The translations under genes were made by a program, and so were the position numbers. DNA of 64,000 nt from an uncultured Gammaproteobacteria bacterium (GTDB taxonomy: Bacteria; Patescibacteriota; Patescibacteriia; Magasanikbacterales; UBA922): positions 494,633-558,632 of the forward strand of contig CAYMVY010000001.1 in assembly GCA_964394405.1 (NCBI GenBank). The letters run 5' to 3'. How positions within the stretch are numbered: the stretch's first letter is position 1; each line of letters opens with the position of its first letter. Under the pieces are notes generated by a model, which saw only the letters and a program-made list of their open reading frames with translations, had not been told where the DNA came from and searched no databases. Positions 14 through 16,043 of the stretch are shown here, piece by piece.

Positions 14-1768
14 ATGGCGTTCTTCTACCTCGGCGGATGCGAGAGCGTCCCGCCGGAGGCGAGCAACAACAGCAACAACACCTTCACGGTGGCAAACAAC
101 GTCGACATGGATGGTGACGGTGTCGTGGAAGGTGGCGTTCCCGGTGGGGACGTCACCCTCGTGATCCGCCAGACCTGCGAGACGGCTCCGAACGAGGGAA
201 CCGAGGAGCTCTGCTTCTCGACCTTGAGCGGTGCCCTGCGCGGGACCGGCGACTGCGATGGCTACCCGAACGACGATCCGGCCGTGTGCTTCGACGGCGG
301 GCTCGACTGCTCGCAGACGAAGTACAGCGTCTGTGCGCTCTGCATCCACCCCGCGGGCGTCGGCATCAATGCCGCGACCGAGGTGTGCGATGGCGTCGAC
401 AACGACTGCGACGCGCAGGTCGACGAAGGGTTGATCTGCATCACGAGCTGCGACGACGGCGACGCGTGCACGTTCGACGGGACGCCCACGGTGAACGGGT
501 GCCCCGAGAAGACGGCCGTGCCCGGGTGCTGCCACTACGACGAGACTTCTGACACGGACGACAACGAGTGCCCGGCGACTCACGAGTGCGTGGAGAACAA
601 CACCTGCGCCCCCGTGACCTGCCAGCCGACCAACGCCTGCTTCACCGCGGCGGTGGTCAACCACGACTGCGTCCAGACCGCCAAGCCGGTCGACGACGCG
701 AACGCGTGCACCACCGACGCCTGCAATACGGCGACCGGTGCGATCACGCATACGGCACTCGCAACGATTGACGACAGCAACGCGTGTACCGTGGACGCGT
801 GCAATACGGCCACCGGCGCCGTCACGCACACCCCGGTCGCGATCGACGACATGAACTCGTGCACGACGGACGCCTGCAACACGACGAGCGGCGCCATCAC
901 CCACACCAAGATCCTGGGCTGCGCTGCCCAGTGCAATGTGGAGCACGACAACGACGGTGAGGCCACGAGCGATTGTGCGCCCTACCGCGACCCGCAGCTC
1001 TCCAACCTCTACGGCTGGGGCTGCTGGCCGACCACCATCACCACCGACCCCAACAACATGGGCACCTGCGTCGCCTACGAGGACCAGGACAACGACGAGT
1101 TCGTCGACGTGCCGGAGCGCTTCTGCGCCGATGGTATCGACGGTGATCTCGACGGCAAGACCGACGGGGCCGACAGCGACTGCCCGGTCTGCACCAACGT
1201 CGACCAGTGCGACGATGGTGACCCGTGCACGACCGATTCCTGCAGCGCCAACCTGTGCGTCTGGACGGTCATCGCGGGCTGCATCGAGTGTCAGACGAAC
1301 GCGCAGTGCCCGCTCGGGAAGACGTGCGGCGAGGACAACACCTGCCACACGACCACCCCCCCGACCACGTGCTCGCCCTCGAACCCGTGCCCGTCCGGCT
1401 ACTACTGCGCGGATGGGGTCGCCCAGTGCTTCGTCTTCGCCGACCAGCGCGGCAACACGTCGTCCTACGAATCCGGCCTCGACAGCAAGCCGGACACCAC
1501 CCCCGACAACTTCGACAACGACGGCGATGGATTCTGCGAGACGGCGCCCTGCGTCGGCTCGCTCGATCCGCGTCTCACGGTCTCGGGGTTGCAGGGTGGT
1601 GACTGCGATGACAACCCGGCTGGCCCCGGGACCTTCGTCATCAGCTGGACCGATGCCGGCGGCGTCTCCCGCTCGTTCACGACCGATGGTTCCTACAACA
1701 ACCGTCCGGGCGCGATCGACTGGGCCGACAACTACGACAACGCGTGCAAGGGCCACCCGTTCCTGTGA
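14..1768 (+). CDS. Secreted, possibly lipidated Cys/Asp-rich repeat protein. It has three tandem ~28-aa repeats (DDxNxCTxDACNTxTGAxTHT), Myxococcus-type cysteine-rich repeats (CDDGDPCTTDSC) and a TEVCDGVDNDCDAQVDEG motif (MopE-like putative metal-binding). The 5' end may be cut by the window edge.
   Basis: The ORF runs without stops from the window edge. An LGGC lipobox-like sequence lies only 8 aa from the first Met, so the true start is probably upstream. Cys spacing is strongly periodic and GC3 is very high (GAC, AAC, TGC, GGC codons), unlike the rest of the window. The C-terminal ~90 aa share motifs with the C-terminus of the 3990..6008 protein (DGDxxCETAPC, GGDCDD, DGSYxNxPG, DxNYDNxC). 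Confidence 0.6.
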   Translation: MAFFYLGGCESVPPEASNNSNNTFTVANNVDMDGDGVVEGGVPGGDVTLVIRQTCETAPNEGTEELCFSTLSGALRGTGDCDGYPNDDPAVCFDGGLDCSQTKYSVCALCIHPAGVGINAATEVCDGVDNDCDAQVDEGLICITSCDDGDACTFDGTPTVNGCPEKTAVPGCCHYDETSDTDDNECPATHECVENNTCAPVTCQPTNACFTAAVVNHDCVQTAKPVDDANACTTDACNTATGAITHTALATIDDSNACTVDACNTATGAVTHTPVAIDDMNSCTTDACNTTSGAITHTKILGCAAQCNVEHDNDGEATSDCAPYRDPQLSNLYGWGCWPTTITTDPNNMGTCVAYEDQDNDEFVDVPERFCADGIDGDLDGKTDGADSDCPVCTNVDQCDDGDPCTTDSCSANLCVWTVIAGCIECQTNAQCPLGKTCGEDNTCHTTTPPTTCSPSNPCPSGYYCADGVAQCFVFADQRGNTSSYESGLDSKPDTTPDNFDNDGDGFCETAPCVGSLDPRLTVSGLQGGDCDDNPAGPGTFVISWTDAGGVSRSFTTDGSYNNRPGAIDWADNYDNACKGHPFL

Positions 1769-2023
1769 ACGTGGTAAGGCGCATGTAGCGTCTTAACAAC
1801 AAGCGGAAGTTCCGCATTACATATCTGAACTCGTCATGCGGCACGAGAACAGATCACGGATCTGGTCGAAGGATCAGAACACAACTAGCCGCACCAAGGA
1901 GAAATATAGAAGGGAGAGAAGACAAGTATGATCTCGGCAGCAATGCCCCGATCGTCGAGTCTCTCTCCCGGTCTCAATTCTATTCCTCATCATGATGATG
2001 GGGGAGAGATAGAGAAGAAATTC

Positions 2024-2043
2024 AAAACTCAAAGTTCAAAACG
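2024..2043 (-). repeat. Third, solitary copy of the 20-bp end motif of the four-helix-bundle cassette (CGTTTTGAACTTTGAGTTTT).
   Basis: It is the exact 20-bp reverse complement of 11693-11712. It is also present with one mismatch at 6242-6260. Confidence 0.6.
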
Positions 2044-2437
2044 CAAAAGTAAAAAGAAAAATTTCTGAAATGTAGATAATAGATTTCAGATTCCAACATA
2101 TCTTTATCAAGTAAGACTGAACACTCAAAGTAATACATATTAGTGAGATACGCGTGAAGTTGTATTGGTAGAGAGATGTTGGAAACAAAGTAAAAAGAAG
2201 AGAAAAAAGAAAATACAAAACTCAATGCCGGTGGTAATGATAAGGCGGAAAGTAAATTACAATTCAATACACACCGCGTGGAATACGCGCGGGGAGAAAG
2301 CTCGCGCCTTGCGAGTTTTTTCAATAAACCGTAGAATGTACCCTTGCTAGTGCAATCAAAAACTTCTACTACCACGGGAATATAGGGAACTGTATGTCAG
2401 TGGCGGGAGAGGTTTCGGAAAAAATCTCACTGCACAG

Positions 2438-3613
2438 ATGGAGCAACTCATGCCATTTCGCGTCCTTTTGATTTCGTTCGCCCTGCTCTTCGGAGCGTGC
2501 GATAATACGATCGCGGGCTCTGTCCGCCAGATCGACCACACCACTCCCACCATCCTGAATATCGCGGACACGATCGAGCATAATACCTCGGTCGAAGACG
2601 CGGAGGATACCCACGTCCACATGGACGAGACCTCGGAAGACACGCGTGTCGAGGAAACTCAAGACACGGTCTCGACCGCAGAGACTGAGGTTGTGACTGA
2701 CACGATTGTCCCGGACACTGCTCCGGAGACGATCGAGGAAGTCGATAGTACAGACGACACCATCAATACAGAGGACACGGTCACCGTGGACACACGGGAT
2801 ACCCTGTCTCAGCCCGAGGTCACTCTAGCCGAGTGCACCCTCGACGCCGACTGCGTTGATGAAGACGAGCTGTGTTTCGAGGGCGAGTGTGTGACTGCGC
2901 ATGCTCTCTGCATGGCACACACCTCTGACCACATCTACCCTGAGCTCGAACTCTGCTGTGTCAAACAGCATCCGGTGTCTCAGGGAGAGGGACTCTGCTC
3001 CTACAGCATGGTCACGGATGAAATAGTGTTCTACTCATGTGTCGAACAAGGGACGAGCCTCGTAATCGAGGAAGTCTCGTGCGTCGATCACGACGAGGAC
3101 ACGAGTGATTCGTGTGATCAGTCGTCTGGGTGTGAAAACACCCCGATCGATTCAGACGACGACCTGTTCTATGACTCAGAGGACGACTGCCCCTTCGAAG
3201 CAGAGGTCTACGACTTCTACGACGACTGGGATGGCTGTCCCGAGGATGACCAGGACCACGACGGCTGGGCCCCACCAGAAGACTGCGACGACGACTCGAC
3301 CATAGACGGGCCTCTGGCCACGTACTGCGAGGACGAGTTCGGCTTCTACGTGATGATCAACACGTACGTCGACGACCTGTTCTACCCAGACTGTCTCGAG
3401 GACTCGTCACTGATCTTCCTGACCGATGGGTCGTTCTTCAATGGAGCGCACATCGCGGGCCAGGACTACCCGGGCGATGAGTTCGACAACGACTGCGACG
3501 GCCAGGCTGATGAAGCAGGTGAGACCGGGCTTATCGACTGCTGGTGGTACGAACTCGGTGAGTTCGTCTCACTGGTCGAGTGCCTGTGGATGACCGAGGA
3601 ATTGGCGGATTAG
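2438..3613 (+). CDS. Acidic secreted lipoprotein. It has a signal peptide with an LFGAC lipobox-like cysteine, a long Thr/Asp/Glu-rich linker, Cys-rich modules, thrombospondin-type-3-like Asp-rich calcium-binding motifs (DDDLFYDSEDDCPF, DDWDGCPEDDQDHDGW) and a GDEFDNDCDGQADE motif.
   Basis: The ORF is complete. GC3-rich codon usage contrasts with the AT-rich flanks, and the signal peptide is followed directly by Cys. Confidence 0.55.
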   Translation: MEQLMPFRVLLISFALLFGACDNTIAGSVRQIDHTTPTILNIADTIEHNTSVEDAEDTHVHMDETSEDTRVEETQDTVSTAETEVVTDTIVPDTAPETIEEVDSTDDTINTEDTVTVDTRDTLSQPEVTLAECTLDADCVDEDELCFEGECVTAHALCMAHTSDHIYPELELCCVKQHPVSQGEGLCSYSMVTDEIVFYSCVEQGTSLVIEEVSCVDHDEDTSDSCDQSSGCENTPIDSDDDLFYDSEDDCPFEAEVYDFYDDWDGCPEDDQDHDGWAPPEDCDDDSTIDGPLATYCEDEFGFYVMINTYVDDLFYPDCLEDSSLIFLTDGSFFNGAHIAGQDYPGDEFDNDCDGQADEAGETGLIDCWWYELGEFVSLVECLWMTEELAD

Positions 3614-3989
3614 CCCGCCCTATCCTCCACTTCGTGGGTGGGTCAGTGCATGCAATGGTTCGTAATTACGATGAGCCTGTATGTTCTTGACCCACCCGCG
3701 ACTACACAACTCCCTGTTGACTAATAGAGGTTTATATGTTACTGTTTGCAGTTGCGTAAGGAAATTCGCATCTTGTACGTCTTATAGCGGCGTGTAGTAT
3801 GCGGCGCTTGACTTAGGTCGAGCCCAAGGTTCTTTTACATATAGTGTTTTGTGAAAATTTGTATAGTCAAGAAACGGTGGATGTGTTTGTGCTCTCAACA
3901 AAGGCACGAATGCACCCCCGTTTCTTGACTGCGGTAGGTTCCGCAGCACAAGGATGGGTTCACGGCACATTCCCAGGAGGGAAACCGCC

Positions 3990-6008
3990 ATCATGTTGCT
4001 TCTGAAGAAGATCCACGAACGCTCCATCATCTTGATGGGGGTGTTCGCCCTGCTCGTGGGGTTCACGAGCGCCTGCATCGATGACGGGTCGCGAGACCCG
4101 GTCGGGTTCACCCAGGGTGCCAGTAACGACGGCGACAACGACGGCGTGCCGGACAACCCGGACAACTGCCCCGGGGTCTACAACCCGGGTCAGGAGAACA
4201 ACGACGGCGACTACGAGCCGTACGATGGGCAGATGGGCGACGCCTGCGACGACGACGACGACAACGACGGCGTCGAGGACGTCGACGACAACTGCCAGTT
4301 CGTCTGGAACGAAGACCAGCTGAACACCGACTGGGAGCTCTCCGAGGAGGAGAACTCGACGGTGGTCGGCGACAACATGGGCGACGCATGCGACGACGAC
4401 GACGACAACGACGACGTCTGCGACATGGGGGTCATGCTCTACAACGCGGACGTGTTGCCGAAGTCGGAGTGCGAGGGCTGGGACAACTGCCAGTTCACGT
4501 ACAACCCCGACCAGGAGAACCTGGACCAGGACTACTGGGGCGACGCCTGCGACGATGACGGCGACTGGGACGGTGTCTTCAATGACGAGGACAACTGCCC
4601 CGAGACCCAGAACCGATTCCAGGAAGACCTCGATCAGGACGGTATGGGCGACGCCTGCGATCCAGACGACGACAACGACGGCGCCTGCGATCCTCACCAT
4701 GAGGCGCGGCTCCCCTCGGCTCCGTGGCTTGAGGAATCACCGGATCAGTGCGAGGGCTGGGACAACTGCCCCGACCTCGAAAACCCTGATCAGTCTGATT
4801 GGGATGGCGACGGCAAGGGGGACTGGTGCGACGGCGATTGCCGTGGTGATGGGTTCTTCGAGGCCTACTACCCCGAGGACTTCCCGAACCTCTACTGCGA
4901 CGGCGACGACAACTGCACCCTCGACTCCGAGGAGTGCGACGACGAGAACAACTGCACCCTCGACTACTGGTGCAGCGATGGTGAAGGCGGCGAGTGCACG
5001 CACGAGAAGGACTACGAGAAGGGGGAGTGCATCGAGTGGTGCAACAACAGCGGACAGGGGCAGTGCAACGATCACGACCCCTGCACCGATGACGACTGCG
5101 AGGGCAACACGTGCGAGCATCAGCTCGACATCACCAACCTGGGCTGCGAGGAGCCGGGGTGCGACAACAACAACGACTGCGAGGACAACAACCCCTGCAC
5201 GGACGACGTCTGCAACCAGGAGACCGGCCAGTGCAGTCACAACAACGACAACACGAACGTCTGCGCCGACGCCGACCTCTGTGACGGCACCGAGACCTGC
5301 GTCTCGGGCGTCTGCACGGATCAGGAGGACCTCGTCTGCAACGACAGCAACCCCTGCACCGACGACACGTGCGTCCCGGCCACGGGTTGCTCCTACAGCA
5401 ACGACAACACGAACGTCTGCGCCGACGCCGACCTCTGTGACGGCACCGAGACCTGCGTCTCGGGCGTCTGCACGGATCAGGAGGACCTCGTCTGCAACGA
5501 CAGCAACCCCTGCACCGACGACACGTGCGTCCCGGCCACGGGTTGCTCCTACAGCAACGACAACACGAATGTGTGTACGGACGGCAACTCCTGCACAACC
5601 GACACCTGCTCGAGCGGTCAGTGCGTGGGCACGCCGATCCAGGAGTGTGGCGTCGTGGATCTCCACGGCGACACCCCGCCTGGTGTGGGTGGTGGAAACG
5701 GCGGACCGAATGCGGACGGAACCGATGACGCGAAGGATGACGACGGCGACTGCTATTGCGAGACCGCGCCGTGCACGTCCTCGGTGAACTCGACTTGCGG
5801 GCCCCTCCTCGGAGGCGACTGCGACGATGATCCGGACGACTCGGCCATGACGGTGAGGAATCCGGGTCCGAATCAGTTCTCGTCGGACGGCAGCTACTAC
5901 AACAACCCGGGTACGGACGGTCAGCAACCGAACGGGAACGAGTGGTGGGACGACAACTACGACAACGACTGCGACAACGTGGTCGACGACGGGTTCCCCG
6001 CGAACTGA
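3990..6008 (+). CDS. Secreted, likely lipoprotein, with N-terminal thrombospondin type-3 (TSP3) calcium-binding repeats followed by multiple Myxococcus-type cysteine-rich repeats. The C-terminal domain is shared with the 14..1768 protein.
   Basis: The TSP3 consensus DxDxDGxxDxxDNCPxxxNxxQxDxDxDGxGDxCD is matched several times (DNDGVPDNPDNCPGVYNPGQENNDGDYEPYDGQMGDACDDDDDNDGVEDVDDNCQF...). Repeated NPCTDDxC / CxDGxExC modules follow. The start at 3990 is preferred because a signal peptide (MLLLKKIHERSIILMGVFALLVGFTSAC) sits behind an AGGAGG ribosome-binding site; the alternative ATG is 3954. GC3 is very high. Confidence 0.65.
   Translation: MMLLLKKIHERSIILMGVFALLVGFTSACIDDGSRDPVGFTQGASNDGDNDGVPDNPDNCPGVYNPGQENNDGDYEPYDGQMGDACDDDDDNDGVEDVDDNCQFVWNEDQLNTDWELSEEENSTVVGDNMGDACDDDDDNDDVCDMGVMLYNADVLPKSECEGWDNCQFTYNPDQENLDQDYWGDACDDDGDWDGVFNDEDNCPETQNRFQEDLDQDGMGDACDPDDDNDGACDPHHEARLPSAPWLEESPDQCEGWDNCPDLENPDQSDWDGDGKGDWCDGDCRGDGFFEAYYPEDFPNLYCDGDDNCTLDSEECDDENNCTLDYWCSDGEGGECTHEKDYEKGECIEWCNNSGQGQCNDHDPCTDDDCEGNTCEHQLDITNLGCEEPGCDNNNDCEDNNPCTDDVCNQETGQCSHNNDNTNVCADADLCDGTETCVSGVCTDQEDLVCNDSNPCTDDTCVPATGCSYSNDNTNVCADADLCDGTETCVSGVCTDQEDLVCNDSNPCTDDTCVPATGCSYSNDNTNVCTDGNSCTTDTCSSGQCVGTPIQECGVVDLHGDTPPGVGGGNGGPNADGTDDAKDDDGDCYCETAPCTSSVNSTCGPLLGGDCDDDPDDSAMTVRNPGPNQFSSDGSYYNNPGTDGQQPNGNEWWDDNYDNDCDNVVDDGFPAN
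5244..5555 (+). repeat. Perfect in-frame 156-bp tandem duplication (2 copies) inside the 3990..6008 CDS. It encodes NDNTNVCADADLCDGTETCVSGVCTDQEDLVCNDSNPCTDDTCVPATGCSYS twice and is followed by a diverged partial third unit.
   Basis: Direct comparison shows 5244-5399 identical to 5400-5555. The third unit diverges from about 5569 (GAATGTGTGTACGG against GAACGTCTGCGCCG). Confidence 0.9.
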
Positions 6009-6177
6009 ACGCCGGTCACGAGCCGGATACGAAAAGGGTATAGCTGAGCCCTGAACACGGAACGAGCCAGGTGGCTCGAACAGCAACCCGGGAGTGGGGC
6101 GGCGCAATTCATGCGCTGCCTCCTCCCGACTTCTACAGTGTTCTCATGTATATGAGAGTAGTGAAGAAGTTACAATA

Positions 6178-6214
6178 AAAAAACATCCTATCATGCATCG
6201 GGATGTTTTTTAAA
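6178..6214. terminator. Bidirectional rho-independent terminator between the converging genes 3990..6008 (+) and 6425..7876 (-).
   Basis: AAAAAAACATCC-loop-GGATGTTTTTT: a 6-7 bp stem with an A-run on one side and a T-run on the other. Confidence 0.6.
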
Positions 6215-6221
6215 TTGAAAA

Positions 6222-6392
6222 AATTAGTATAACTCAAAACGTAAAACTCAAAGTTCAAAATTATAACTCAAATCTCAAAACTTTTTTCAAATCATTTTTT
6301 GAATCTAGTTTAGTCATAATCCCTCCCTGATTAAGTTTTAAATTTTACGTTATAGTTTTACGTTTTGACATTTGAGTTTTGAGTTATGCTAA
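6222..6392 (-). mobile_element. MITE-like, internally deleted, inverted copy of the four-helix-bundle gene cassette found at 11236..11722. It has ~18-bp terminal inverted repeats (ATTAGTATAACTCAAAAC ... GTTTTGAGTTATGCTAAT) and retains the promoter/RBS, the first 9 codons and the last few codons of the cargo gene.
   Basis: The reverse complement of 6290-6395 matches 11236-11344 with 2 mismatches. The reverse complement of 6222-6289 matches the 3' end and downstream flank of the gene (11670-11712). About 325 bp of ORF interior is missing, with the junction at GATTTGAAA|AAAGTTTTGAG. Confidence 0.8.
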
Positions 6393-6424
6393 TCTTCCCC
6401 TCCTTTTACTTTTTATTTTGCAAA

Positions 6425-9180: not shown

Positions 9181-11205
9181 ATGATTCATACCCTATACAA
9201 AAAATGTATATATCTCGGAGTAGTGCTCATGTTGCTCTCTGGATTGGTGTATCCGCGTAGTGCAGAGGCGTCGATTAATTCGCATACGTCACCGAGAATC
9301 GCAAATTATTTTTTGAAATGGGAGTTGACGGATATAGAAGCGACTGAACTTTCAAAATGGGATGTAGTTATATTGGATATGGAAGTACAATTCCGCAGTG
9401 CAGCAGCTCTCGCAAAATTAAAAAAATTGAATCCAGAAATCGTCCTTCTTGTGTATCTAACCCCCCAAGAAATCGCTACCAATGCAGCCACTGGGTGGAG
9501 TACTGCTAGACGCAAACTCGCTGCAGGAATTCCAGATGAGTGGTATCTCAAAAATAGTAGAGGAGAACGACTCTCCTGGTGGTCAGGAACGTATCTACTC
9601 AATGTGACTGATAGTGCGCCTGAACGCGGAGGAATGAGGCTGAATGAGTACATACCGCGATTTGTAGTGAATGAATTGTTATCTTCTGGATATTGGGACG
9701 GAGTGTATTATGATAATAGCTGGGATACTATTGCCTATTTTGCGGGAAATGATATTGATTTGAATCTCGATCGTTCACCAGATACCGCAACCGAGACCAA
9801 ATGGCAGGAGGGTATGAAAGAATTGTATGCAACGACCCGGAATTTGAGCGGGAGTGATATTATTATTGTGGGGAACAATCACAATACTGCATATCTCTCT
9901 GATCTCAATGGAAAACTACTCGAAAATTTTCCGAACGGTAATTGGGTGTCGACCATGAATACATTGAGAGCATTTTCGACTAGTCGAGCGGTGGTACCTC
10001 GTGTACCAATAGTCAATGCAAATACGGCAAATACCGGAATCCCTGATTATCGCTCCATGCGATATGGTTTGACCTCAGCACTCCTCGAGAATGCATATTT
10101 TGCCTATGACCACGGGGATCAGGATCATGGACAGACATGGTGGTACGATGAATACGAGGTATCGCTCGGGAATCCGATAACTGTAGCGCAATCACAGACC
10201 GGCAAGACTGAGTATGCGCCAGACGTGTGGTCGCGTAATTTTGAAAATGGAATTTCGATTGTGAATAGTACCAATGAGGCGCGTACCATTCCGCTTGACG
10301 GAGAGTATGAGCATATTCATGGTGTCCAGGACACGGCAGTGAATGATGGATCCATTGTCTCAGAAGTCACCCTTGCGCCAAAAGATGGACTCATATTATT
10401 GAAAACATTCGAGACACTGAAGAATGTCATTTTTACCAATGGTTTTTTTGCGCGATTTTTCAAGCCCACCGGTGAACGAGCACGCAATGGATTATTTGTT
10501 TTTGAAGAAGAGCAGAAAGGTGGCGCACAAATTGCGCATATTGATTTGAATTTTAATAATCAAGAAGATTTGGTCGTGGTGAGTGGTAACAAGATTCAGG
10601 GATGGAGAGATGATGGACAAATTTTGTTTAAGATTTACCCCTATGGTGCCAACTATACGGGATCGCTACATGTCGCGGTAGGTGATCTTGATAATGATGG
10701 CTTCTATGAAATATACAGTGCTCCGAGCGCTGGTTTTCGAGAACCCATTCGAAGGTATGATAGAAATGGAGCGACTATTGGAGGAGATCTTTTCCCCTAT
10801 GGTTCAGCATACAAAGGTGGATACCATATGGCCCTAACCAAAGCATCGGAGGCAGCTCCTGCGCGACTGATTGTGGGATCAGGGGTGGGGGTGAGACCAA
10901 CGATCACCGTCTATGGTCCTGACTTCAAAAAATTACTCGCCTTTAGCGCATTTGAATCTACATTCATGGGCGGGGTAAGTGTTGCTGCGGGAGATGTCGA
11001 GGGAGATGGAACACAGGAAATTATTGCAGGGAAAGGAAGTAATGGAGCGCCTACGGTAAAAGTATTTACCCTTCAGGGAAAAGAAAAATATCAATCCTTC
11101 AATGCGTATACTACGATGTTTAAACCTGGTATTGAAGTTCGTACATTGGATATTGATTTTGATGGGAAAGATGAGATTGTGACCCTATCGGATGGAGCGT
11201 TATAA
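9181..11205 (+). CDS. Secreted protein. The N-terminal domain is a putative TIM-barrel glycoside-hydrolase-like domain (GH114/GHL-type; low certainty). The C-terminal domain is an FG-GAP/VCBS-like beta-propeller.
   Basis: A signal peptide is present. The C-terminus has repeated GDLDNDGFYE and GDVEGDGTQEII motifs typical of FG-GAP repeats. The N-terminal WDVVILDME region resembles the polysaccharide-hydrolase-like families. An alternative GTG start lies at 9166. Confidence 0.5.
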   Translation: MIHTLYKKCIYLGVVLMLLSGLVYPRSAEASINSHTSPRIANYFLKWELTDIEATELSKWDVVILDMEVQFRSAAALAKLKKLNPEIVLLVYLTPQEIATNAATGWSTARRKLAAGIPDEWYLKNSRGERLSWWSGTYLLNVTDSAPERGGMRLNEYIPRFVVNELLSSGYWDGVYYDNSWDTIAYFAGNDIDLNLDRSPDTATETKWQEGMKELYATTRNLSGSDIIIVGNNHNTAYLSDLNGKLLENFPNGNWVSTMNTLRAFSTSRAVVPRVPIVNANTANTGIPDYRSMRYGLTSALLENAYFAYDHGDQDHGQTWWYDEYEVSLGNPITVAQSQTGKTEYAPDVWSRNFENGISIVNSTNEARTIPLDGEYEHIHGVQDTAVNDGSIVSEVTLAPKDGLILLKTFETLKNVIFTNGFFARFFKPTGERARNGLFVFEEEQKGGAQIAHIDLNFNNQEDLVVVSGNKIQGWRDDGQILFKIYPYGANYTGSLHVAVGDLDNDGFYEIYSAPSAGFREPIRRYDRNGATIGGDLFPYGSAYKGGYHMALTKASEAAPARLIVGSGVGVRPTITVYGPDFKKLLAFSAFESTFMGGVSVAAGDVEGDGTQEIIAGKGSNGAPTVKVFTLQGKEKYQSFNAYTTMFKPGIEVRTLDIDFDGKDEIVTLSDGAL

Positions 11206-11235
11206 AGTAAAAAGTAAAAGGGAAAAAGGTAAAAG

Positions 11236-11722
11236 ATTAGTATAACTCAAAACTCAAATGTCAAAACGTAAAACTATAACGTAAAATTTAAAACTTAATC
11301 AGGGAGGGATTATGGCTAAACTAGATTCAAAAAATGATTTGAAAGTACGTGCGTATTTTCTATCAATACAGACCATACGTTTTTTAGAGATAGTGCCTGA
11401 AAAACGTGTGTATTGGACAATTGGAGATCAGCTACTTAGATCAGTAACGTCAATTGGGGCAAATATTGTCGAAGCAAAATCATCAGCCTCACGAAAAGAG
11501 TTTATCAAGTTCTATCAAATTTCCCTTAAGTCAGCGAATGAGAGTAAATACTGGCTCGGATTATTACGTGATACTACAAATATGGATAAAGACTTAGACA
11601 ATAACATACTGAATGAGGTTGTAGAAGTTGCAAATATGCTTGGATCAAGTATCATTACCATGAAGAATAAAAAGTTTTGAGATTTGAGTTATCGTTTTGA
11701 ACTTTGAGTTTTAAGTTTTGAG
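11236..11722 (+). mobile_element. Small terminal-inverted-repeat-bounded cassette carrying a four-helix-bundle protein gene. It is the full-length counterpart of the MITE-like element at 6222..6392.
   Basis: The left terminal inverted repeat ATTAGTATAACTCAAAAC (11236-11253) is identical to the element end at 6222. Both ends are built from degenerate ACTCAAA / GTTCAAAACG units. The right end (…CGTTTTGAACTTTGAGTTTTAAGTTTTGAG) is a partly degenerate inverted copy. Confidence 0.65.
11312..11680 (+). CDS. Four-helix-bundle protein (TIGR02436 / 23S rRNA intervening-sequence protein family, PF05635).
   Basis: The family signature is present: GDQLLRSVTSIGANIVEA ... SRKEFIKFYQISLKSANESKYWLGLL. The protein is 122 aa and is preceded by a strong RBS (AGGGAGGG). 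Confidence 0.8.
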   Translation: MAKLDSKNDLKVRAYFLSIQTIRFLEIVPEKRVYWTIGDQLLRSVTSIGANIVEAKSSASRKEFIKFYQISLKSANESKYWLGLLRDTTNMDKDLDNNILNEVVEVANMLGSSIITMKNKKF

Positions 11723-11732
11723 ATGGGTCTCT

Positions 11733-15166: not shown

Positions 15167-15886
15167 TCACGGGTCGTCGCAACCTTCGAGTTCGGTCTTG
15201 GCGACGTAGAGGAGCTCTGGGCATCGTGCAGGATCTTGGCTCGGTACGATCGAGTACGTCAGGCGATCGAGGAACTGCCACGTGGTCACGTTTTTGAAGA
15301 GCGTGACACAGCCGTTCCCGTATCCGTACGACGGATCACGAGGATCTCGAAGTTCGATCCAGTATCCGCTCTCGCACAGTTCTCCGAGAGGGAGCCACTC
15401 GGAATAGGGTATGACCCCAGTCTTCTCCCATGGCTCGCGTCCGAAGATGATGGTTATCTCCTCGCCATCGTGCAGATGTGCTGGGGGAGGTGAGCCATCG
15501 TAGCCAGAAAGTACGTAGATGAGGACGTCGCGACTGACGCACTGTCCGTCAGGAGTACAGTCCTTGCCACTGGCGCAGTGCCAGTCTTCGGTGCACGGGA
15601 GTGTTTCTGTGAACACCTCTTCCGTCGGTATGGTAGTGTCTTCGACCGCAGTGTCATCGAGTGTGATGTCTGCATCGGGAACGTCTGCGAGATCGGTAGG
15701 GATGTAGGGGTGCTCGACCATGTCAGCCCATTTCTCGGTGATGATGGTCACAGGAACCTGTGCATCACTCGAGGAGGTGGCGTCACTATCGCTCCATACA
15801 TCTTGCTCCATTCTCACGACGATAGTGATATCGTCGTAGTCGCAGGCGATGATGAGGAAGGCCAGGGGAATGAACAAACGCTTCAT
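15167..15886 (-). CDS. Cys-containing secreted lipoprotein of unknown function; the fourth GC3-rich gene.
   Basis: A GGAGG RBS lies 8 nt upstream of the ATG at 15886. The signal peptide MKRLFIPLAFLIIAC has an IIAC lipobox. Cys-rich C-terminal motifs follow (CTEDWHCASGKDCTPDGQCV). GC3 is high, unlike the neighbouring genes. Confidence 0.55.
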   Translation of the reverse strand: MKRLFIPLAFLIIACDYDDITIVVRMEQDVWSDSDATSSSDAQVPVTIITEKWADMVEHPYIPTDLADVPDADITLDDTAVEDTTIPTEEVFTETLPCTEDWHCASGKDCTPDGQCVSRDVLIYVLSGYDGSPPPAHLHDGEEITIIFGREPWEKTGVIPYSEWLPLGELCESGYWIELRDPRDPSYGYGNGCVTLFKNVTTWQFLDRLTYSIVPSQDPARCPELLYVAKTELEGCDDP

Positions 15887-16043
15887 GGTATTTCCTCCGC
15901 AAGGGAAGTTTGGTTGGGACTTGTACAAAGACACTGTTGTCTTATACAAGCAATCTGTAGCGTTATAGAAATACGACTTTAGTCCCACACCACAATCTTT
16001 GGTGCGAAGTAGTATTTCTACAAATTACAGCTATGTGATAACA

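Follow-up and report, generated by a model that had tools for sequence, protein, structure and literature searches.

Within the window, that is, the whole 64-kb stretch of DNA that was analysed, a gene encoding a predicted lipoprotein contains an exact tandem repeat (Table 1). The program-made open reading frame begins at 3954, and the ATG codon at 3993 is the likely start of the gene. An AGGAGG sequence is found upstream of this codon, at 3975-3980, and the protein of the only close ortholog (P0001) begins at a methionine matching it. Comparisons were made with this ortholog and its locus (P0001/L001, Logan SRR8893623) and with three further loci, L018, L019 and L020. The signal peptide ends in a lipobox-type motif, LVGFTSA followed by cysteine, which is kept as IILMGVAALLVGLTSAC in the positional ortholog of L019. 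By pattern inspection, the paralogs also have lipoboxes (LLFGAC, LFMGC and SVAAC).

Table 1. Coordinates of the features of the repeat-bearing gene and of its downstream flank, numbered along the window.
Feature	Positions	Strand	Basis and remarks
Gene for a 671-aa Cys/Asp-rich predicted lipoprotein	3993..6008	+	ORF list, AGGAGG, ortholog start, Pfam, GC3 0.88
Predicted signal peptide and lipobox, MLLLKKIHERSIILMGVFALLVGFTSA followed by C	3993..4076	+	Pattern inspection of the translation
Thrombospondin type-3 (TSP3) calcium-binding repeat region	4116..4853	+	Pfam TSP_3 E=7.7e-13; COMP 3fby
Cys-rich A/B module region	4896..5648	+	Pfam, 60-homolog consensus, AlphaFold2; hypervariable between orthologs
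Copy 1 of the 156-bp unit	5243..5398	+	15-nt R + 141-nt S; one A and one B module
Copy 2 of the 156-bp unit	5399..5554	+	100% identical to copy 1
Third 15-nt microhomology, CAACGACAACACGAA	5555..5569	+	Identity stops at 5570 (T, versus C at 5258 and 5414)
Conserved C-terminal domain	5649..6005	+	DGDCYCETAPC ... GGDCDDDPDD ... DGSYYNNPG ... DNDCDN; common to the paralogs
Hairpin with A-run and T-run flanks	6173..6217	.	Between convergent genes

Three regions follow the signal peptide. In the first, the TSP_3 family (PF02412) is matched with 48.3 bits, above its gathering cut-off of 25, and the sequence matches in the PDB are COMP (3fby, E=1.4e-34) and thrombospondin-2. The protein also matches the MtsC family of Myxococcus (NF047638), with 92.2 bits; this is below the equivalog cut-off of 350, and the match reflects the shared TSP3 repeats only. 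In the cysteine-rich region, Dicty_CTDC (PF00526, cut-off 27) is matched with 38.5 bits by the whole protein and with 44.6 bits by the duplicated segment. Finally, the C-terminal domain (the last ~120 residues) has no match to a Pfam family at E<=10. It is ~95% identical to that of P0001 and is also found in gene 1 of the window and in proteins of L018 and L019. Distant copies, the DGDCYCETAPC motif included, are carried by high-GC Myxococcota-like contigs. Two antisense open reading frames (4737-6107 and 5131-5598) were considered as genes and rejected, their V/A/R-rich products being mirror images of Asp, Asn and Cys codons. From the sequence patterns and the predicted structure, the product is predicted to be an exported protein with a cell-surface anchor. 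The surface repeat protein proposed by the sequence-only reading is thus borne out as a predicted secreted and anchored protein, in view of the lipobox, the TSP_3 and Dicty_CTDC matches and the hypervariability between orthologs, which comprises in-frame indels and the replacement of a cassette. Downstream of the gene, the segment 6165-6222 folds with -13 kcal/mol (z = -3.8) around a 12-bp stem, and this hairpin is probably a bidirectional terminator.

Pfam scans identify the remainder of the window as a large locus for polysaccharides and the cell envelope, in which many GT4 and GT2 glycosyltransferases are encoded together with Wzy-like ligases, AsnB-like amidotransferases, DegT aminotransferases, sugar epimerases, a flippase and an ECF sigma factor. 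Neither an Rfam family nor a tRNA was found in the window. A 141-kb NCBI contig (JAXOUH010046707.1) is syntenic with it. The closest named homologs of AsnB and Wzy belong to Patescibacteria/CPR (Falkow-, Komeili-, Magasanik- and Moranbacteria); taking only these best matches into account, the host is probably CPR-like.

Direct comparison of the two 156-bp units, 5244-5399 and 5400-5555, gives 0 mismatches. The longest exact run is slightly longer than a unit: 5243-5413 equals 5399-5569 over 171 nt, so that the array consists of two complete copies followed by 15 nt of another. Tandem Repeats Finder delimits it as 5239-5569, with a period of 156, 2.1 copies, 99% matches and a score of 655. Because no other exact direct repeat of the 64-kb window exceeds 25 nt, a repeat of this size is far beyond chance. 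The only other sizeable array of the window, 78 bp x 2.9 at 74%, is found in the neighbouring gene, and no further tandem repeat scoring at least 60 occurs between 12 and 64 kb. Within the plus-strand open reading frame the repeat is in phase, (5244-3954) mod 3 being 0. The array has the order R-S-R-S-R, where R is the 15-nt sequence CAACGACAACACGAA at 5243, 5399 and 5555. The sequences around the three occurrences of R are ...CAC AAC AAC GAC AAC ACG AAC GTC TGC at the first junction, ...TAC AGC AAC GAC AAC ACG AAC GTC TGC at the second and ...TAC AGC AAC GAC AAC ACG AAT GTG TGT at the third.

The repeat coincides with the modular organization of the protein. Two kinds of modules with four cysteines each alternate in this region, module A with the pattern CxDxxLCxGxExCxxGxC and module B, corresponding to Dicty_CTDC, with the pattern CxDxNPCTxDxC..GC. 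Each 156-bp unit is translated as NDNTNVCADADLCDGTETCVSGVCTDQEDLVCNDSNPCTDDTCVPATGCSYS, 52 residues with 8 cysteines, made of an A module (CADADLCDGTETCVSGVC), a B module (CNDSNPCTDDTCVPATGC) and the linker SYSNDNTNV. The perfect in-frame tandem duplication of 156 bp described from the letters of the DNA, and the double cysteine module of 52 residues attributed to each unit, are therefore both confirmed. The same reading placed a diverged partial unit after the repeat. Downstream of copy 2 there are 15 identical nucleotides coding for the NDNTN linker, then a diverged B-type half module (CTDGNSCTTDTCSSGQC) and then the C-terminal domain; the half module is thus present, but it is not a whole unit that has decayed. 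In an alignment with 60 homologs, the consensus is a long alternation of CDDxNPCTxDxCxPxxGC and CxDGxxCTxxDxCxxGxC with a period of ~52 residues, and a paralog of the relative L019 (11004-12560) carries three A+B units of 53-57 residues. As judged from these alignments, what was duplicated is precisely a single A+B pair, and such a pair of ~52 residues is the natural period of a large bacterial family. When AlphaFold2 was supplied with the alignment, the segment 5160-5651 was modelled with a mean pLDDT of 92.2, showing one beta-hairpin per module and an identical hairpin pattern in both copies. The run with the single sequence was uninformative (pLDDT 42). A Foldseek search of the PDB with the module model gave no significant match (best E=0.009); the non-significant likenesses were elongated Cys-rich stalks, the Entamoeba Gal/GalNAc lectin and TNF-receptor CRDs.

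The polarity and the age of the event may be approached by comparison with orthologs. At L001, both flanks are ~95% identical to the window at the DNA level, and the region 5140-5620 is unalignable. In-frame indels (+12 and -31 residues) also separate the two genes, and their identity is mosaic, blocks of 95-100% lying beside blocks near 70%. At L018, which comes from a genome where Wzy is 74% identical, the module set at this place is the same as at L001, an A module followed by HAGxPCLxLVTTDxDCTGSC.... Because L001 and L018 have this common and different module set at the site, the A-B-A-B block of the window is the derived state. When the window and the compared loci were searched for a donor or an ancestor of the A-B cassette, none was found, the best match being 73% over 104 nt. 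Genome and metagenome contig collections searched with the C-terminal domain gave no relative with the 156-bp unit, only distant relatives, and an exact look-up of the window proteins with either start codon had no match in the searched collections. At fourfold sites, 18% differ between the window and L001, and copies 1 and 2 have zero differences in 156 nt. The duplication would therefore be much younger than the separation of the window and L001, and we estimate that it dates well after it.

It may also be imagined that the duplication is old and that its copies are held identical by continuing gene conversion, in a form of concerted evolution. The mosaic of L001 and the in-frame indels suggest frequent recombination among repeats and go in this direction. 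However, the A-B-A-B arrangement is wholly absent from L001 and L018, and other tandem units of the family have drifted to 70-75% identity, so that homogenisation is not the rule. Since these older units have diverged to such an extent and no near-perfect array was found in L001, L018 or L019, a recent event is favoured over routine homogenisation, which we consider improbable as the source of the identity. The sequence-only reading had taken the perfect identity to imply either a very recent duplication or an ongoing expansion and contraction; the lack of differences between the copies, the orthologs without the unit and the 70-75% identity of older arrays in the family all agree with the former.

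Taken together, these data lead us to propose, with a probability of roughly 0.7, a very recent duplication of one A+B period by slippage or unequal exchange in the stalk of a surface lipoprotein, in a low-GC and probably CPR/Patescibacteria-like host. The data show the repeat, its frame and module content, its derived state with respect to the orthologs and the modelled fold of the modules; we infer the mechanism, the location at the surface, the effect on function and the instability. The ancestor would have had the organization R1-S-R2, with two 15-nt direct repeats 156 nt apart, R encoding the NDNTN linker that ends two successive B modules. Replication slippage or unequal sister-strand exchange inside the 15-nt microhomology would then have produced R-S-R-S-R. 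A crossover at this place is proposed because the three junction sequences are exactly as it predicts. Reading frame and module boundaries would have been preserved by the duplication, and the result would be a longer disulfide-bonded rod between the lipid anchor with the calcium-binding TSP3 region and the C-terminal domain. From what is generally known of repeats, the 171 nt of perfect homology would leave this locus liable to gain or lose further units. The duplication could also be neutral and transient. In itself, it is an ordinary recent repeat expansion, the usual mode of growth of modular repeat proteins.

Two readings of the same data concern the assembly. The first one supposes that there is a single true copy and that the second was made by misassembly, repeat-rich and high-GC genes being error-prone. 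Such an artefact is very improbable. Assemblers are far readier to collapse repeats than to expand them, and a second copy needs sequence spanning the junction. Moreover, the product keeps the frame, respects the module boundaries exactly and has a 15-nt microhomology at its borders, all of which is the biological expectation. In the second reading, the array has been collapsed: at least three copies would exist in the genome, or in a fraction of the population, and the assembler would have returned the minimum traversal of a loop. Indeed, with k < 156, any copy number of at least two should yield one and the same graph cycle, and crossing S-R-S once would give two copies. Short-read assemblies are also fragmented in this region, as illustrated by a Logan contig of SRR12404947 which carries a 100%-identical neighbour gene (Wzy) and is only 1968 bp long, its break being in the AT-rich repeat spacer past the gene, not in the 156-bp repeat. 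On the other hand, long perfect arrays are absent from the other sampled members of the family, and two copies would be reliable if the contig was built from long reads. Collapse is plausible but unlikely, though the most probable of the alternatives, and unless long reads underlie the contig, two copies should be taken as a minimum.

A programmed diversification was also envisaged, either with the template and variable repeats of a diversity-generating retroelement or with a phase-variation switch. CPR genomes are rich in retroelement-based diversification of surface proteins, which speaks for the idea. In the present case, however, two identical coding copies lie side by side, with no adenine-specific mismatches. 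Pfam scanning of 41 open reading frames of the window (the 40 longest non-overlapping ones and a small one of 122 residues) detected no reverse transcriptase, recombinase or transposase. Since these enzymes were not detected and the copies are identical and adjacent, systems of this type are unsupported, and we regard their involvement as close to negligible. On/off switching is excluded because gaining or losing copies leaves the reading frame unchanged.

The gene belongs to a GC-rich island. Three genes for Cys/Asp-rich lipoproteins, at 14-1768, 2438-3613 and 3993-6008, have GC3 values of 0.90, 0.73 and 0.88, respectively; those of the backbone genes are 0.32-0.46, in a genome of ~40% GC. 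In the island, GC-ending codons are favoured for every amino acid. In relatives, the island is annotated on the wrong strand by public gene callers. It is found beside Wzy in L018 (Wzy 74% identical) and in L019/L020 (Wzy 59% identical) as well. Gene by gene across syntenic orthologs, GC3 is 0.88/0.85/0.84/0.85 for gene 3 and 0.73/0.73 for gene 2, and the synonymous divergence of the island genes is about equal to that of Wzy. We rejected the idea that recent horizontal transfer alone accounts for the high GC content, the island being syntenic and equally GC-rich in relatives with a Wzy of only 59-74% identity. Translational selection acting purely on C-ending codons was rejected as well, because GAG, CAG, AAG and NCG are also preferred. 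Because the GC3 contrast recurs in diverged orthologs, a persistent gene-local force would suit the data better than a recent acquisition that is still ameliorating. Such a force might be GC-biased gene conversion tied to recombination among the repeats, or selection favouring GC-rich codons in exported proteins; in the literature, nothing relevant was found that links GC-biased gene conversion to the repeats of bacterial surface proteins. The duplication may be one trace of an unusually recombination-active cluster with an actively maintained composition, but this seems improbable to us. The relatives of the C-terminal domain, on Myxococcota-like contigs of uniformly 60-73% GC, suggest an ancient foreign origin of the island. 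The existence of a conserved GC-rich island in a low-GC genome is more unusual than the duplication and may merit a study of its own.

The very recent duplication that we favour would offer a clean, textbook case of the growth of a modular surface protein, in which a microhomology-mediated event, exact to the structural period, has been caught before divergence. In practice, the copy number that an assembly gives for 5243-5569 should not be trusted. In addition, the protein is a hypervariable predicted surface lipoprotein of a probably episymbiotic CPR-like host, and proteins of this sort are candidates for host attachment.

Several known systems may be compared with this locus. The alpha C and Rib proteins of group B streptococci are tandem-repeat surface proteins with repeats identical at the DNA level and with variation in copy number. 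As in these proteins, the units here are in frame and identical in DNA, they belong to a protein predicted to be secreted and anchored to the cell, each unit is a folded module, and gain or loss alters the length and leaves the frame unbroken. Unlike them, the present protein has two copies only, its modules are disulfide-rich hairpins rather than Ig-like Rib domains, and its anchor is a lipobox rather than LPXTG. With thrombospondin and COMP, the likeness concerns the N-terminal half, which matches several type-3 repeats of the form DxDxDGxxDxxDNC; in contrast to these proteins, the product is a bacterial lipoprotein with neither a C-terminal lectin-like domain nor EGF modules. The Myxococcota-like Dicty_CTDC arrays (P0002-P0120; PF00526) have in common with the window protein the A+B double module, the ~52-residue period and 34-50% identity. 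However, they are ~900-1200 residues long, with at least 10 periods, in genomes of uniformly 60-73% GC, whereas the window protein has few periods, added TSP3 repeats and a low-GC genome.

Within CPR bacteria, the literature gave nothing relevant on repeat proteins of the TSP3 or Dicty type. In CPR Peribacteria, cysteine-rich extracellular proteins have been reported to occur in clusters and to be a source of variation between strains (PMC4736985). Compared by description, Ca. Peribacter riflensis differs from the present case in that its genome has 58% GC throughout, whereas here a GC-rich cluster is embedded in a ~40% GC backbone, and in that its proteins are of about 1,655 residues, against 391-671 here. 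The two cases nonetheless have much in common: a CPR-type genome, a cluster of cysteine-rich proteins bearing signal peptides (5-9% Cys here), a resemblance to the cysteine-rich repeat proteins of Myxococcus and a location adjoining genes for cell-envelope polysaccharides (PMC4736985).

The perfect 156-bp duplication in gene 3, which encodes a predicted Cys/Asp-rich lipoprotein, has an older, aged counterpart in gene 1 of the same cluster. There, B-type modules (four-cysteine Dicty_CTDC modules) of 78 bp (26 aa) form a tandem array of 2.9 copies at 74-75% identity, with the pattern DDxNxCTTDACNTxTGAxTHT. Gene 3 itself differs from its ~95%-identical ortholog L001 by two more in-frame indels: L001 has 12 additional aa, and a 31-aa segment adjoining the 39-nt-spaced repeat CDGDDNCTLDSEE / CDDENNCTLDYW is found in the window only. 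Two blocks are moreover just ~70% identical. The indels and divergent blocks suggest mosaic recombination in gene 3.

Features of the window and of the relatives' loci L018 and L019
Feature	Locus	Position	Strand	Remark
GC-rich island	window	14-6008		genes 14-1768, 2438-3613, 3993-6008
Island counterpart	L018	2671-3582
Island counterpart	L019	6542-15000
Cys genes	L019	6542-8722, 11004-12560	-	with collagen-like repeats
Cys gene	L019	10127-10753	-
Public gene calls	L019	6476-8719, 10193-10786, 11061-12683	+	antisense of Cys genes
Asp-rich lipoprotein-like protein	window	15167-15988	-	9-11 Cys; signal ends LIIAC
Module array, gene 1	window	690-907
Indels, gene 3	window	4636-4660, 4930-5022		vs L001
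~70% blocks, gene 3	window	4276-4395, 4780-4839		vs L001
103-nt duplicate	window	6285-6387	-
103-nt duplicate	window	11242-11344	+
Small gene	window	11312-11680
AT-rich spacers	window	2018-2064, 6220-6396, 11204-11298, 11673-11724		26-31% GC

The three lipoprotein genes make up a GC-rich island within a ~40% GC genome. GC3 is 0.73-0.90 in the island genes versus 0.32-0.46 in the backbone, and GC-ending codons are used for all amino acids. Counterparts in both diverged relatives show that the island is conserved, and syntenic orthologs keep gene-specific GC3 values, though synonymous divergence is saturated. In L019, the island also holds genes that are not Cys-rich (291 aa, GC3 0.76; 302 aa, GC3 0.89). 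Outside the main island, the window carries a moderately GC-rich gene (GC3 0.64-0.66), whose Asp-rich product has no Pfam family.

In the public annotation of L019, the Cys genes are called on the wrong strand. The resulting V/A/R-rich 'proteins' gave zero Pfam hits. On JGI contig 3300072015, a 766-aa call with no Pfam match adjoins Wzy, at the same position as the Cys genes; it is probably likewise an antisense annotation of a Cys gene.

Beside gene 3 lies one copy of a 103-nt inverted duplicate, of which 73 + 29 nt are exact. What is duplicated is the leader with its ribosome-binding site, together with the opening ~11 codons, of a small gene whose product is a 23S_rRNA_IVP / four-helix-bundle protein (Pfam E=8e-21). 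Of the two copies, the one adjoining gene 3 is a truncated remnant. AT-rich spacers contain degenerate heptamer arrays (CTCAAAAC / TTAAGTT-like), which are found repeatedly between genes. The Logan contig of sample SRR12404947 stops inside one of these spacers, at about window position 6358.

Finally, two L019 paralogs join Cys modules to collagen-like G-x-y repeats (Pfam Collagen). Across these lipoproteins the N-terminal stalk is thus swapped between TSP3 calcium-binding repeats and collagen-like ones. The collagen-like paralogs have weak NCBIfam similarity to Scl adhesins.
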